A stretch of DNA of 64,000 nt. Source: an uncultured Acidobacteriota bacterium (GTDB taxonomy: Bacteria; Actinomycetota; Acidimicrobiia; Spongiisociales; ZC4RG35). The notes under the pieces were generated by a model. The model made no database searches. It saw only the letters and a list, made by a program, of their open reading frames with translations, and was not told the origin of the DNA. Each line of letters opens with the position of its first letter. The stretch's first letter is position 1. The position numbers were made by a program, and so were the translations under genes. Location: positions 323,492 through 387,491 of the forward strand of contig CAWHEU010000018.1 of NCBI GenBank assembly GCA_963828465.1. Reading direction: 5' to 3'. This document shows, one piece after another, positions 6,457 through 12,182 of this stretch.

Positions 6457-8070
6457 TCAGCCCTCTTCCATGAGGAGGTCGGCGTATTCGTTCCTCACGA
6501 CCTTCTTGTCGAACTTGCCAGTGCCTGTCTTGGGAATCTGGTCGATGAACAGGATCTTGTCGGGCAGCCACCACTTGGCGACCCGCTCCTCGAGGAAGGA
6601 ATGCAAATCCTCCTCCGACACCTCGACGCCTTCACGGAGAACGACGAAGGCCACCGGGCGCTCCTGCCATTTGACGTGCTTCAGGCCAACGACGGTTGCC
6701 TCGCTCACGTCGGGGTGGGCCATGAGCGCATTCTCCAGATCGATCGATGAGATCCACTCCCCACCCGACTTGATCACGTCCTTGGCGCGGTCGGTGATCT
6801 TGATGTAGCCCTCGGGCGTGATCTTGCAGACGTCGCCGGTGCGGAGCCACCCGTCCTCGAACGACTGGGCGGAGCGGCTGTCCTGGTAGTACTCGGCGGC
6901 GATCCAGGGGCCGCGGATCAACAGCTCACCGAACGCCTCTCCATCGTGGGGCAGCTCCTCACCGATCTCGTCCACGATCTTGACCTGGAGCCCGGCCACC
7001 GGGATGCCTGCCGTCTCGAGGAAGTCGAGTTGCCGGTCGAGGTCCCACTCCTCCATCTCGGGCTTGAGGAGGCTGGTCGAGGCGACCGGGTTGGTCTCGG
7101 TCATGCCCCAGCCCTGCACGACCCGGATTCCCTGGACCTTCCAGTACCACTCGATCATCGCCCTTGGAACTGCCGATCCCCCGCACAGGAAAGCGCGGAT
7201 CGAAGAGAGGTCGACATCCGGGTTCGCTTCGAGATACTGCTTGATCCCCAACCAAACCGTGGGCACACCGGCGCTGAATGTCACCTTCTCCTGCTCGAGC
7301 AGGGGGACGAGACCCTGTGGGGTCAAGTCGGGACCGGGATAGGTGAGTTTGGCCCCCTGAGTGACGGCCATGAAGGGGTACCCCCAGGCGGCAGCATGGA
7401 ACATCGGCACAACCGGCAGGACGTTGTCGCTCGGGAGCATGTTGAAGTTGGCCAAGTTGGAGATCGTGTGCAGGTATGTGGATCGCTGCGTGTAGGCGAC
7501 CCCTTTCGGGTTGCCCGTCGTTCCCGACGAGTAACAGAACATCATCGGGGACCGCTCGTCGAGCTGGGGCCAGGGTCCGTGAGGCTCGGCGTCCCCGATC
7601 AGGTCCTCGTAGGCGATCGATCCCGGGATCGCATCCGAGGCCGACTCCCCCATGACGACGAAGGTCTCCACCGTCTTCAGCTCCGGTGTGATCGGTCCCA
7701 GGAGCGGAGCTAGATCGGGGTCGACGAACAGCACCTTGTCCCCGGCGTGGTTGATGATGTAGGCGATCTGATCGGCGAAGAGCCTGATGTTGACGGTGTG
7801 GCAGACGAGCCCGGTATTGGCGGTGGCCCAATAGAGCTCGTGATGGCGGCGGTTGTTCCAGGCAAAGGTGCCCACCGGGTCGCCCTGCGAGAGACCCAGG
7901 GCCTCGAAGGCGGTGGCGAGTCGTCTCACCCTGGTGTCGGTCTCGCCGTAGGTGGTGCGGGTCACCGACCGATCGGCCTCGACGGAGACGATCTCCTGGT
8001 CCGGGTAGAGCCAGACCGCCCGGTCGTAGAGGGTGGAGAGGTTCAGCGGGAAGTCCTGCATGTGTGGCAT
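6457..8070 (-). CDS. Fatty-acid--CoA ligase (AlkK/DmdB-like)
   Basis: YSSGTTGNPKG, VVPMFH, GWGMTET, DRAKDVIKSGGEWISS. Confidence 0.93.
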   Translation of the reverse strand: MPHMQDFPLNLSTLYDRAVWLYPDQEIVSVEADRSVTRTTYGETDTRVRRLATAFEALGLSQGDPVGTFAWNNRRHHELYWATANTGLVCHTVNIRLFADQIAYIINHAGDKVLFVDPDLAPLLGPITPELKTVETFVVMGESASDAIPGSIAYEDLIGDAEPHGPWPQLDERSPMMFCYSSGTTGNPKGVAYTQRSTYLHTISNLANFNMLPSDNVLPVVPMFHAAAWGYPFMAVTQGAKLTYPGPDLTPQGLVPLLEQEKVTFSAGVPTVWLGIKQYLEANPDVDLSSIRAFLCGGSAVPRAMIEWYWKVQGIRVVQGWGMTETNPVASTSLLKPEMEEWDLDRQLDFLETAGIPVAGLQVKIVDEIGEELPHDGEAFGELLIRGPWIAAEYYQDSRSAQSFEDGWLRTGDVCKITPEGYIKITDRAKDVIKSGGEWISSIDLENALMAHPDVSEATVVGLKHVKWQERPVAFVVLREGVEVSEEDLHSFLEERVAKWWLPDKILFIDQIPKTGTGKFDKKVVRNEYADLLMEEG

Positions 8071-8681
8071 CAGGCGCCTCCGATCAGCTTCTGCTTCTCT
8101 GCCTCGAACTCGACATCGCTCAGCTTGCCTTCGTCGTGGAGCCGAGACAGTGTGGCGAGCTGGGAAGCGGAGCTTTCTGCCGCCGCCGCCCGTCCCCCTG
8201 ATTGCAAGGAGTGCTGGCGATCCTCCCTCGCCTGATAGATCAGCGACTGGATCGCCTCTGGATCGGGAATATCGGTGTAGTGGGTTTGCCCGTGGGTCCC
8301 GGCCGACTCGATGAGGAGATCACCGGTCCCGAAAATCCGCTCCCATGCCGATTGCTGAAACGCCACGTCGTTGATCACCTCGAGCGGGAGCTCTTTGCCC
8401 TGTTTGGAAAGGAGGCCCACGCGGTGGATCAGGCGCTCAGTCGTAATGACGTGCAGCGTGGTGAACCAGCGGATGAACCCTCTCGCCGTCAGCACGAGCC
8501 ACAGGATGATGAGGGCGCCGATCACCCACAGAGCCCAATCGAATCCCTGGAACGCGAGGAACACGATGACTGCGAGGGCGAGGATGGAGAGAATGGCTTC
8601 CTTGAGGATCCCGGACCAGTGAGGTCTGAATTCGGCCTTGATCTCCTCGCCCGGGCTGAGCAGTTTCTCTGGATACGCCAT
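8070..8681 (-). CDS. Membrane protein with bacterial PH domain and C-terminal SHOCT
   Basis: 2 TM; ITTERLIHRVGLL...GTGDLLIESAG; LSRLHDEGKLSDVEFEAEKQKL; leaderless TAGCCT-N6-ATG. Confidence 0.85.
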   Translation of the reverse strand: MAYPEKLLSPGEEIKAEFRPHWSGILKEAILSILALAVIVFLAFQGFDWALWVIGALIILWLVLTARGFIRWFTTLHVITTERLIHRVGLLSKQGKELPLEVINDVAFQQSAWERIFGTGDLLIESAGTHGQTHYTDIPDPEAIQSLIYQAREDRQHSLQSGGRAAAAESSASQLATLSRLHDEGKLSDVEFEAEKQKLIGGA

Positions 8682-8721
8682 GGCGGCAGGCTACCGATCA
8701 GGCCGTTTGGATGAGTCCCCA

Positions 8722-9081
8722 CACAACGAGAAAGTCCCGAGGGAGCCTTGGCCGAAGCCTCAACCCTCTCGGGACTCTCGCCCATCCGGTGTCAGGCCGG
8801 GGACCCAACTCCGAATGGAGTTCTTGCCGATGGCCGAAGCCGCCGGCAGGTGTGCGATCCGAAGATCGCGACCTCCCCGTCTCCGGGAAGACCTTGCGAG
8901 TCGTGAGACCCGCCGTTCGGTGACCGCTCGACGATCCCGAAGGATCCCCGTCCGGTCGTCCGACCGTCCCTGGGGCCCTCAGTTTCCCGGTGACTCCAGG
9001 TTCCCGCACCACGGCCTCGGAGCGGCTCTCACCACTCCGAACCTCTTGATTCGGGCCGCCGCCGGGTTTCCCCTTCGGCGT
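8722..9081 (-). ncRNA. Candidate structured non-coding RNA 1 (~360 nt)
   Basis: Non-coding gap with four cUUCGg tetraloop stems, GAAA/GAGA loops, its own promoter and a terminator-like 3' hairpin. Confidence 0.7.
8728..8779 (-). terminator. 3' hairpin / intrinsic terminator of RNA 1
   Basis: GAGAGTCCCGAGAGGG...GGC-TTCG-GCC...CCCTCGGGACTTTCTC followed by GTTGTGT. Confidence 0.6.
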
Positions 9082-9088
9082 GGGTGGA

Positions 9089-9117
9089 AACGTAGACCGG
9101 CACCATGGTGCTGGCAA
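9089..9117 (-). promoter_or_regulatory. Sigma-70-type promoter TTGCCA-N17-TACGTT for RNA 1
   Basis: -35 at 9117-9112, -10 at 9094-9089, A at 9081 as likely +1. Confidence 0.7.
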
Positions 9118-9191
9118 CTCCAGGCACTGATTCTTTTTCGCGAGGTGATCAATAGTTTCCGCGGTGTCTGTCGGGGCTGGGGAAGACGCAC

Positions 9192-10280
9192 CTATCGGGG
9201 TCGTTTCAGTCTGACTCTGGAGACACCGAGGCGGATGATCTGAAGACCTTCACGGTGTACGGAGACATGATGGTGAAACCAGCACAGGGTGATCAGATTG
9301 TCCGCATCGGTCTTTCCACCGTGTGACCAGGGGATGACATGGTGGACTTGGAGCCGATAACTGAACGGGCAGCCTTCCACGGTGCATCCGCCGTCACGGT
9401 GGAGGACATGACGTCTGAGTTTCCGGTCCACAGTCCTGGATCGGCGTCCCAAATCGAGCGGTTTGTGTTCGGCTCGACCGATCAGGTCCACATTCCCGTT
9501 ACAGAGGACCTCTGCGAGGGTGCCCGGTCCCAGTCTCGGACCGGCAAGGACGGAAACGCCCCGTTCGCCGCTGGTTTCCGCCGCTGTCGGGGCGTCGACG
9601 ATCACTGCCAAATCGACCGGCGGGGACTCTTCGCCCGAAACGCTCTGATAGGGGGATTCTTCGCCCGAAACGCTCTGATAGAGGGAGTCCTGACAGATGG
9701 CGACCAGGGCCAAAGCCCGCCGTTCCGCCACTGCCAGACGTTGATCTCCCGGGACGATCTCATCGGCCCTCTGGTCGACCGCCTTCTCCATGATCCGGGC
9801 ATCCAAACCGGGGAGCTCACCCCAAAACGATGTGGCCAGCTCATCGGAATGGCCGAAATGGACAAAACCATTCCCGGTTCTCCGTTCACGATTCCGGGTC
9901 AACCGCTTGTGATCAGCCACCAGACGACGCAACCCCGAAATGTCGTAACCCTCATGACCGGCACGGGATTCAGAGGGAAGCCGAGACAGCTGTTCCGCCC
10001 GATCAAAGGAGACCTCACCAGCCGCTAGCTGCTCGACCACATCGGGAGCCTCCGCCAGACGAGTTGCCGTCCAACACAGACTCCGGGCCGTCTCATGAGA
10101 CACATCAGCACGAGCCGCCATCCAATCAATGATCGACCGGCAACCATCAGCCAAATGAGACTTCCGGCGACGTTTCTCCGCCACCGCCGCCATCTGCAAC
10201 AACCGGATCGTGGCGATCTCCCGCTCACCATCAGCAATCAACTGATCCAGTTGATCCTCGGAGTAACTCCCCAACTCCAT
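9192..10280 (-). CDS. DUF222 (13E12-like) HNH endonuclease, copy 1
   Basis: RDGGCTVEGC...VHHVIPWSHGGKTDADNLITLCWFHH HNH motif; GEVSFDRA DUF222-like core; ATG at 10280 after leaderless promoter. Confidence 0.9.
   Translation of the reverse strand: MELGSYSEDQLDQLIADGEREIATIRLLQMAAVAEKRRRKSHLADGCRSIIDWMAARADVSHETARSLCWTATRLAEAPDVVEQLAAGEVSFDRAEQLSRLPSESRAGHEGYDISGLRRLVADHKRLTRNRERRTGNGFVHFGHSDELATSFWGELPGLDARIMEKAVDQRADEIVPGDQRLAVAERRALALVAICQDSLYQSVSGEESPYQSVSGEESPPVDLAVIVDAPTAAETSGERGVSVLAGPRLGPGTLAEVLCNGNVDLIGRAEHKPLDLGRRSRTVDRKLRRHVLHRDGGCTVEGCPFSYRLQVHHVIPWSHGGKTDADNLITLCWFHHHVSVHREGLQIIRLGVSRVRLKRPR
9622..9681. repeat. In-frame 30-bp tandem duplication (YQSVSGEESP x2) in HNH gene
   Basis: TCTTCGCCCGAAACGCTCTGATAG at 9628 and 9658. 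Confidence 0.9.
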
Positions 10281-10287
10281 ACCCGAC

Positions 10288-10310
10288 AACGTACGAGGAG
10301 GGCGTGACAA
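10288..10310 (-). promoter_or_regulatory. PafBC/RecA-NDp-like promoter TTGTCAC-N10-TACGTT
   Basis: Motif then 7 nt to ATG of HNH copy 1. Confidence 0.7.
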
Positions 10311-10454: not shown

Positions 10455-10604
10455 ACGCGAGAAACCCCGAGAAAGCTTTGGCCGAAGCCGAAGCCCTCTC
10501 GGGGCTCTCAGTGCCACTCGACCGGGAAAGCGGGCCCCCAGTCAGGTGGCGATCCGGAGGGGCCGAAGCCTCTCCTTCCCCGACCCGGGCGAACCCGTGT
10601 CGGT
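10455..10604 (-). ncRNA. Candidate structured non-coding RNA 2 (~150 nt)
   Basis: Four consecutive hairpins, three UUCG-capped; own promoter; 3' hairpin homologous to that of RNA 1. Confidence 0.65.
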
Positions 10605-10611
10605 AAGCGGC

Positions 10612-10641
10612 AAAGTACGAGAACCCGACCTCACCCGTCAA
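10612..10641 (-). promoter_or_regulatory. Sigma-70-type promoter TTGACG-N18-TACTTT for RNA 2
   Basis: -35 at 10641-10636, -10 at 10617-10612, A at 10604 as likely +1. Confidence 0.7.
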
Positions 10642-10700
10642 GCCATACCGGAGCCTTGTTTTCGCGGCCTAGCCGATCTTTTCGCGTTTAGCCTTCGCCC

Positions 10701-11381: not shown

Positions 11382-12182
11382 GTGACTGTAGAACTGGAAT
11401 TGGCCCCCCTGGAGACCCTCTCCCCGAGCCGTGCCGGGGACTTCAAGGCGTGCCCCCAGCTCTTCAAGTTCCGGGCCATCGACCGTCTCAGCGAGCCCGC
11501 ATCGGTGTATCAGGCCCGGGGTACCACGGCCCATCTCGCACTGCAGCGACTCTTCGACCACCCCTCCATCGATCGTTCGCCCGAGCTCCTGTATGACCTG
11601 TTCCGCGACGCCTGGACCGAGCTCCGAGGGAGCGAGGAGTTCGAAGACCTCTTCGGCGACACCGACGAGGAGCGGCAATGGGGCGTGGAGTCCCTCGCCC
11701 TTCTCACCAACTACTTCAGCATCGAGGACCCGACCGGGTTCGACCCGGTGGACCGCGAGCTGGACATGCTCGAAGACCTCGACGGGATCACGATCAGGGG
11801 GATCCTCGACCGGATTGACCGCGACGACGACGGTCGACTCGTCATCACCGACTACAAGACGGGCAAGGCCCCACCGGAGAGGTACGCCCTCCCCGCCTTC
11901 TTCGCCCTGAAGATCTACGCCCTTCTCATTCGACGCCGCACCGGGGAGACCCCGAAGGAGCTTCGCCTCCTCTATCTGAGCGGGCCGACCCTTTACAGGC
12001 TCGACATCGACGACCGCCAACTCGATGCCATGGACTCGCAGCTGCGGGCGCTGTGGAACGCGATCGACCGGGCCCTGGCCACTCGAAACTTCCCCACCCG
12101 TCCCGGCACATTGTGCAACTGGTGCTCGTTCAAGGAGATCTGCCCGGCGTTCGCCGAGGCCCCGATGGAGAAAGCCTCCTAG
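11382..12182 (+). CDS. RecB-family PD-(D/E)XK exonuclease (Cas4-like, Fe-S staple)
   Basis: LSPSRAGDFKACP, GILDRID, ITDYKTG, CNWCSFKEICP. Confidence 0.92.
   Translation: MTVELELAPLETLSPSRAGDFKACPQLFKFRAIDRLSEPASVYQARGTTAHLALQRLFDHPSIDRSPELLYDLFRDAWTELRGSEEFEDLFGDTDEERQWGVESLALLTNYFSIEDPTGFDPVDRELDMLEDLDGITIRGILDRIDRDDDGRLVITDYKTGKAPPERYALPAFFALKIYALLIRRRTGETPKELRLLYLSGPTLYRLDIDDRQLDAMDSQLRALWNAIDRALATRNFPTRPGTLCNWCSFKEICPAFAEAPMEKAS

Follow-up and report, generated by a model that had tools for sequence, protein, structure and literature searches.

The RNA gene described here is best introduced through the described RNAs that it most resembles. Ms1 is reported to form a long hairpin, with a central bubble that is needed for good binding, and two short terminal hairpins (PMC4191392). 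The synteny phrases tabulated for Ms1 include 'PH' (PMC9130861, Table 3), and the string "Acidimicrobi" is absent from the main text of that paper. CoRP is described from Corynebacterium only, with tRNA-Gln/Glu genes at its flanks (PMC11077062), and raiA has been reported in Acidimicrobiia (PMC10861870).

The window, by which we mean the whole stretch of 64,000 nucleotides that was analysed, contains a 355-nt non-coding RNA gene, RNA-B, at 8727..9081 on the minus strand. RNA-B is a member of an uncatalogued family of Acidimicrobiia RNAs, in which 3–15 independent UUCG- or GNRA-capped hairpins are followed by one shared helix; we found no description of such a hairpin-chain family in the open-access literature. 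The Acidimicrobiia are common in soils and sediments, and as they have no recognisable 6S RNA, an apparently very abundant RNA would fill a visible gap. With this family, it becomes possible to test directly whether, as proposed, each bacterium has a single abundant RNA that binds RNA polymerase. The promoters point in addition to an undescribed replication regulon, marked by a paired CGCGAAAA box, and to a regulatory rewiring around the same RNA, with DnaA in one case and another factor in the other.

Searches for known RNAs

Rfam gave no match in the window at the gathering threshold, and only chance matches between 8300 and 9500; four distant homologs and 20 bPH_2 loci were likewise without a match. 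The best match of the Ms1 model (RF02566) in the window genome scored 11.8 bits and lay elsewhere, and the profiles of RNA-B and of its sister RNA-A, together with our terminal-helix model R1, gave no significant match on three real Ms1 loci. Nor is the synteny that of Ms1: the HAD-IB hydrolase orthologue is at C22:585686, away from RNA-B, where it abuts a convergent gene, and neither Ms1 nor a hairpin RNA was found within 1.5 kb of the 20 best Actinomycetia bPH_2 loci. The doubt about Ms1 voiced in a preliminary description of this DNA is therefore borne out, since the tests of sequence, fold and synteny all fail. The same description had seen no hallmarks of tmRNA or RNase P RNA; these are encoded elsewhere (C22:340949 and C22:512165, respectively). 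The 6S covariance model (RF00013) found nothing at the locus and matched 0/40 class genomes, and the raiA model had no match in the window genome.

A conserved non-coding RNA gene

The promoter, 5′ stem, GAGA stem, tetraloop stems and 3′ helix that had been cited earlier are all present on the minus strand. The −35 box, TTGCCA (9112..9117), is separated by a 17-nt spacer from the −10 box, TACGTT (9089..9094). The RNA is a chain of ∼10–12 hairpins, including the 5′ stem (9080–9057) and the CGGAGTGGT-GAGA-GCCGCTCCG stem (9039–9018), and ends in a 3′ terminal helix (8728..8779) that is common to all family members and is likely to be both a terminator and a binding module. The strand was inferred from the promoter and the loops, the RNA contigs carrying no strand information. 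The plus strand reads CCGAAG at 8752, 8834, 8859 and 8937, and the observation that the tetraloops read correctly on the minus strand is matched by the predicted folds: −209.3 kcal/mol for the minus strand (z=−5.28, with 0/100 shuffles as good) and −169.7 kcal/mol for the plus strand (z=−3.09). When all 355-nt windows of the genome were scanned for tetraloop-capped stems, RNA-B ranked first with nine, compared with seven for a paralog and six for the RNase P RNA.

A consensus scan of the locus detected neither a promoter nor a terminator, so that both calls rest on conservation. Of the earlier claim that the RNA has its own promoter and terminator, the conserved −35 and −10 boxes stand, but the consensus scan lends no support to either element and the U-rich tail that follows the long 3′ helix is short.

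Near full-length homologs are present in 27/30 genomes of the same genus, the three misses being genomes that are 61–93% complete. In an alignment of RNA-B with 26 homologs (one contig-truncated homolog was left out), both sides have changed in 14 of the 98 pairs, and pairing is kept in 98.6% of cells; 0/500 shuffles reach these values, and slid controls pair at 35–57%. Because kinship inflates covariation tests, these statistics are supporting rather than formal. The consensus fold is a chain of local hairpins in which G-U pairs are kept, and whole hairpins have been gained in 5/27 and lost in 2/27 of the genus homologs, the loss amounting to ∼90 nt of hairpins. An open frame of some kind occurs in 23/27 homologs, but the reading frame is broken by 100/105 internal indels, and variability does not differ between the three codon positions. 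The homologs with covarying pairs, the absence of an Rfam match, the lack of a coding signal and the RNA contigs described below support the preliminary description of an unannotated, independently transcribed structured RNA of ∼360 nt. RNA-B is thereby confirmed as a gene for a non-coding RNA that is conserved, shows covariation and has its own promoter. In one genome with 5% contamination (G029), RNA-B is present twice, on C22 and on C26, both copies being 94% identical to the window.

Two further blocks stand out on the minus strand: a near-invariant block, CGGGGAUCC (8942..8950), and an invariant C-rich loop block, GGGUCCCCG, in the second-last hairpin (8798..8806). They are complementary, and co-occur in long family members. 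A conserved two-state switch between them was considered and rejected, as the long-range helix is disfavoured by a median of 6.6 kcal/mol and comes within 5 kcal/mol in only 13/39 cases. Judged from their complementarity, a short 5-bp pseudoknot between the blocks is possible.

The conserved 3′ neighbour is a bPH_2 gene (8070..8693, minus strand) with a SHOCT match slightly below the cut-off. It had been said to have its own leaderless promoter; indeed, it has a leaderless −10 box at 8693–8688, and a TAnnnT box is found in 13 of the 14 homologs with a located start. The conserved divergent 5′ neighbour is a PD-(D/E)XK nuclease gene (11382..12182, plus strand). From synteny alone, both would be classed as positional neighbours of RNA-B. 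No tRNA is found at the locus. A DUF222-HNH gene (9192–10310, minus strand) is a variable insertion that separates RNA-A from RNA-B; it has a leaderless-type TACGTT box at 10293–10288 and an internal direct repeat of ∼20 nt near 9680–9630.

Evidence for transcription

Eight studies (soil, rhizosphere, plant, mine drainage and unspecified) provided 14 RNA runs that contain the RNA-B sequence. Four of these runs were aligned to the locus, each in the form of contigs, and the cover is concentrated in bins 8728–9115. The HNH and bPH_2 genes lacked contig cover, which we do not read as a sign that they are silent. One 355-nt RNA contig corresponds exactly to 8727–9081, with seven differences, and contigs of another study end at 8727–8728. 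The contigs are thus confined to the predicted ends, in keeping with the transcription start near 9081 that had been expected, and provide fair evidence for the presence and ends of the transcript. RNA-A is covered in two runs (contigs at 10457–10570).

The summed contig depth of RNA-B in the four runs was 4e3–1e4, 3–5e5, 4e4–4e5 and ∼10, against 3.9e3, 2.5e4, 3e2 and 1e4, respectively, for the tmRNA locus. The depth of RNA-B is therefore at least, or of the order of, that of tmRNA in 3/4 runs, all of them chosen for holding RNA-B. High abundance is only a hint, as contig depth measures it poorly, the reads belong to relatives and the runs were preselected.

A family of hairpin-chain RNAs

The earlier picture of a single RNA is correct in that the non-coding RNA is real; however, RNA-B is one member of a multi-copy family in which the number of hairpins varies, and both the sister genes and an upstream paired box had been missed. 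RNA-A lies 1.4 kb upstream of RNA-B (10456..10605, minus strand, with a predicted start), is ∼150 nt long and has four hairpins and the same 3′ helix. Its promoter (10612..10641, minus strand) consists of TTGACG (10641–10636) and TACTTT (10617–10612), and paired CGCGAAAA boxes are at 10686–10679 and 10666–10659 (10659..10686, minus strand). Three of the 50 pairs of RNA-A covary, and C-rich loops are invariant in both RNA-A and RNA-B. A third copy, RNA-C, is at C22:129.3–129.5 kb.

For 52 dereplicated RNAs of the 88 collected, UUCG or GNRA is found in 281/393 hairpin loops, compared with 36/845 in shuffles, one loop per RNA being fixed by the collection procedure; a symmetric internal loop lies beneath 237/393 hairpins. 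Family RNAs of the window's own order range from 119 to ∼540 nt in length, and the longest homolog found (L314, in G151) is ∼770 nt with tandemly repeated hairpin units. CGCG occurs within the last 14 nt extracted of 54/94 family RNAs, so that the DNA just beyond the terminal helix looks like the box in inverted form. Own-order loci mostly lie between the divergent PD-(D/E)XK gene and the bPH_2 gene, with unrelated genes inserted around them. These insertions are not one IS element; assorted enzymes were found instead.

Model R1 was built on the terminal helix (53 sequences, 14/20 pairs covarying). It matches 27/28 same-order genomes, several of which had contributed to the training set, and 4/63 other class members. 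There are 1–5 copies in each of 26 of the 27 own-order genomes with a match, and at least three strong ones in the window genome. Each of the four matches in other class members is a structured RNA that is preceded by a TTGAC promoter of its own and ends in the family's terminal helix. Among 40 genomes from the order to which G151 belongs, 15 match at E<=0.05; by inspection, seven of these are homologs and eight are ordinary terminators or chance. In a 40-genome sample of the phylum, matches came from this family and from two genomes of one other family only, the latter having the 210-nt RNA described below. A promoter-pattern search returned names of Acidimicrobiia or of Actinomycetota type for 38/80 among the matches listed.

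Several loci are less typical. L325 and L326 (family f28, outside the class) encode a 210-nt RNA that has its own promoter and the same terminal helix, with different internal hairpins and no tetraloop chain. L346 has the helix, without a tetraloop chain or box array. R1 matches L316–L323, and R2 matches L343, L345, L334, L336 and L329, resemble ordinary terminators or chance and were excluded from the promoter counts. At L034 (G000:C22:431192–431305 and 431696–431809), two tandem units of a promoter and a single hairpin, ∼55 nt each, lie 504 bp apart, with a CGCGAAAA box before the first and R1 scores of 37–40 bits. These are possibly minimal family members, or else ordinary terminators, and are weaker candidates than RNA-A and RNA-C.

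A paired box shared with replication genes

Upstream of RNA-B, a proximal CGCGAAAA box (9135..9142, minus strand) ends 17 nt before the −35 box, at ∼−61 to −54, and a distal copy with one mismatch, CGCGGAAA (9156..9163, minus strand), lies at ∼−82 to −75. CGCGAAAA is found 16–18 nt before the −35 box at 28/28 RNA-B promoters and at the 15 RNA-A promoters found within those loci, often with a second copy 20–21 nt upstream of the first. With at most one mismatch allowed, the box pair occurs at five sites in the window genome, namely RNA-A, RNA-B, RNA-C, dnaB and dnaA, whereas four control octamers gave zero sites each. The pair is present in 36/37 own-order genomes (35/36 without the unpublished G050), compared with one match overall for a reversed control, and the exact pair followed by TTG in 4/7 own-order genomes and 0/394 others.

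The 86 pair sites in 34 other own-order genomes comprise 43 at hairpin RNAs, 14 at dnaA, four at dnaB and one at nrdJ. The remaining 24, left unassigned in that count, include five RNA genes, one whiB gene, one HTH_17 gene and one site at an integrase gene, the rest being mixed. A scan of the collection added six nrdJ-like leaders (one Pfam-confirmed), three dnaB-like leaders (two confirmed) and one rel. The nrdJ gene of the window genome has an inverted single box only, and there are no boxes within the dnaA–dnaN interval. At dnaA, 0/14 sites have −35 and −10 boxes at a fixed spacing after the box, which therefore need not be an activator site there.

The box resembles the SCB/E2F sites of yeast. 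A KilA-N protein was sought as box binder and not found, and for the small HTH_17 protein encoded behind one of the boxes (L189) no homolog exists in the window genome.

Boxes were also seen in other settings. A whiB-family gene has an upstream box (G000:C9:53525 and L231) that is paired in G056 and single in the window genome. Six repeats at G000:C25:109478–115393 and C26:98034–100486 carry a single CGCGAAAA ∼75 nt before an apparent tRNA 3′ half, and are likely to be a tandem array of integrated-element attachment sites. On C1 of G461 (L192 and L227–L230) there are six perfect paired boxes, five of them with a common upstream motif and with no promoter or RNA after them, which suggests a repeated element in family f10. 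At G000:C2:187591–187640 (L176), outside oriC, a single CGCGAAAA box is directly followed by four DnaA-box-like 9-mers; L189 is similar.

DnaA-box-like arrays in the neighbouring order

Homologous promoters outside the window's own order have DnaA-box-like 9-mers and no box pair. The scan used what we take to be the DnaA-box consensus 9-mer, which also marks the upstream region of dnaA in the window genome. Nine promoters of the neighbouring order, chosen for having a TTGAC −35 box, carry 29 such 9-mers in the sense orientation, where 3.2 would be expected and the highest count among 200 shuffles was 10; the opposite strand has four. Their offsets from the −35 box recur, at −32 in 6/9 promoters, at ∼−74 in 6/9 and at −85 in 5/9. 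One locus, L306, has no 9-mers of this kind. Three held-out loci, one of which (L344) adjoins a bPH_2 gene, have 18 over both strands against 1.4 expected, with the −35 box placed by eye. The own-order RNA promoters show no DnaA-box excess (17 against 20 expected). At the level of sequence motifs, then, DnaA boxes appear to stand in fixed phase ahead of the −35 box in the neighbouring-order promoters. The RNA family is thus linked to the control of replication through two distinct promoter codes.

Possible functions of RNA-B

We put the probability that RNA-B is a replication-coupled multivalent protein sponge at roughly 40%. As a stand-alone, stably folded chain of interchangeable hairpins, it would titrate a structure-recognising RNA-binding protein; the hairpins would be the protein-binding units and their number would set the capacity. 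A factor binding the paired box would activate transcription from ∼−60/−80, with DnaA taking the activator role in the neighbouring order. The output of RNA-B would then be set by the replication-initiation circuit, and its dose would follow replication status. Such a sponge agrees with the exchangeable loops, the freely varying number of hairpins, the sister genes and the single dedicated box, the logic being that presented for RsmZ (PMC13287468). As the loops share no GGA-type motif, specificity would have to come from shape. Among the candidates searched in the 92%-complete window genome, a KhpA/B KH protein is the sole RNA-binder detected; CsrA/RsmA (PF02599) was not found, nor were Hfq, ProQ and Ro60/TROVE detected. 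A specific tertiary core, as suggested by the invariant blocks, would be superfluous in a simple sponge, and levels comparable to those of tmRNA would be explained at least equally well by binding to RNA polymerase.

It is possible, if rather doubtful, that RNA-B is this lineage's abundant RNA-polymerase-binding RNA, an analogue of Ms1, CoRP and 6S that stores or modulates the enzyme in step with replication. One such RNA per species has been proposed, with some escaping homology searches (PMC11077062). The size of RNA-B lies between those of Ms1 and CoRP, and the contig depths, although weak evidence, point the same way. Neither 6S in the class genomes nor Ms1 in the window genome was found, which leaves room for such an RNA; however, class genomes without a detected family member are without 6S too, and the lack of 6S is therefore not diagnostic. 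RNA-B lacks the long central-bubble hairpin that Ms1 needs (PMC4191392), and hairpins that come and go so freely are hard to reconcile with a fixed mimic of a promoter.

It is unlikely that RNA-B is a cell-cycle sRNA that acts by base-pairing, as EcpR1 and CcnA do, with the C-rich loop directed at mRNAs of replication genes. EcpR1 is reported to repress dnaA through a conserved loop (PMC4414408), and the invariance of the C-rich loops of RNA-B and RNA-A would suit such a role, but the loop seeds pair with 11 dnaA and four dnaB leaders no better than with random DNA. Many members in the order lack C-rich loops, RNA-B is almost wholly locked in stems, and two candidate partners, Hfq and ProQ, were among the proteins not detected.

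We rate just as low the idea that RNA-B is a bulk structural RNA, either an HU-bound nucleoid scaffold or a nucleotide store, made in proportion to DNA synthesis. The tolerance of changes in size and sequence, the box held in common with replication genes and the report that naRNA4 depends on two hairpins and not on sequence (PMC4550694) are in its favour, yet both the terminal helix and the invariant blocks point to specific recognition.

A function at the level of the DNA, as a site of DnaA titration, a DARS/datA-like site or a REP-like palindrome array with the RNA as a by-product, is very unlikely. Whilst the DnaA-like arrays at homologous promoters and the single box beside a DnaA-box-like cluster at G000:C2:187591 would agree with it, the tetraloops are correct on one strand only, G-U pairs are kept, the hairpins are neither alike in sequence nor scattered over the genome, and own-order promoters are without DnaA boxes. 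Finally, the readings of RNA-B as a leader or attenuator of bPH_2, as a small protein-coding gene or as a guide for the adjacent HNH nuclease are largely refuted. RNA-B does share its strand with the bPH_2 and HNH genes, and most homologs have some open frame, but the indels and codon positions argue against coding, bPH_2 has its own leaderless box and is separated from the RNA by unrelated genes in at least eight genomes, and an HNH homolog lies within 1.5 kb upstream at only 8/28 loci.

The sponge reading can be placed beside a wider one, which we offer tentatively as a possibility. A class-wide, size-elastic RNA (∼55–770 nt) may be the main transcriptional output of the Acidimicrobiia replication-initiation circuit, with DnaA as its driver in one order and a factor recognising paired CGCGAAAA boxes at dnaA, dnaB and nrdJ in another; it would be a tunable multivalent scaffold through which RNA polymerase, or some other core machine, is coupled to chromosome replication. 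If true, this would be a new kind of bacterial cell-cycle RNA.

Comparison with known systems

RNA-B resembles Ms1 (MTS2823, scr3559), CoRP and 6S in being a stand-alone, stable RNA in the range of 300–500 nt, with its own promoter, from an actinobacterium and at apparently high levels. The family differs from them in having several copies per genome, a variable number of hairpins and different promoter elements, and from CoRP also in synteny, the RNA-B locus being without a tRNA. Like raiA, RNA-B is a structured and apparently abundant RNA; however, its hairpins are arranged as beads on a string, in contrast to the fixed multi-junction fold of raiA.

The likeness to CsrB/CsrC and RsmX/Y/Z lies in hairpins repeated in variable number, in sister genes and in a shared upstream box that stands mostly before RNA genes. 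The family loops are UUCG and GNRA, not GGA, and the box is also found at dnaA, dnaB and nrdJ. With EcpR1 and CcnA of the Alphaproteobacteria, RNA-B has in common a connection to replication and cell-cycle regulators and a conserved G/C-rich loop, but these are base-pairing RNAs, whereas RNA-B is a long hairpin chain without seed pairing to the dnaA and dnaB leaders. The run of intergenic hairpins recalls REP/BIME arrays and naRNA4; in contrast to these, the family has a dedicated promoter, strand-specific loops and non-identical units, and occupies three to five loci rather than hundreds.
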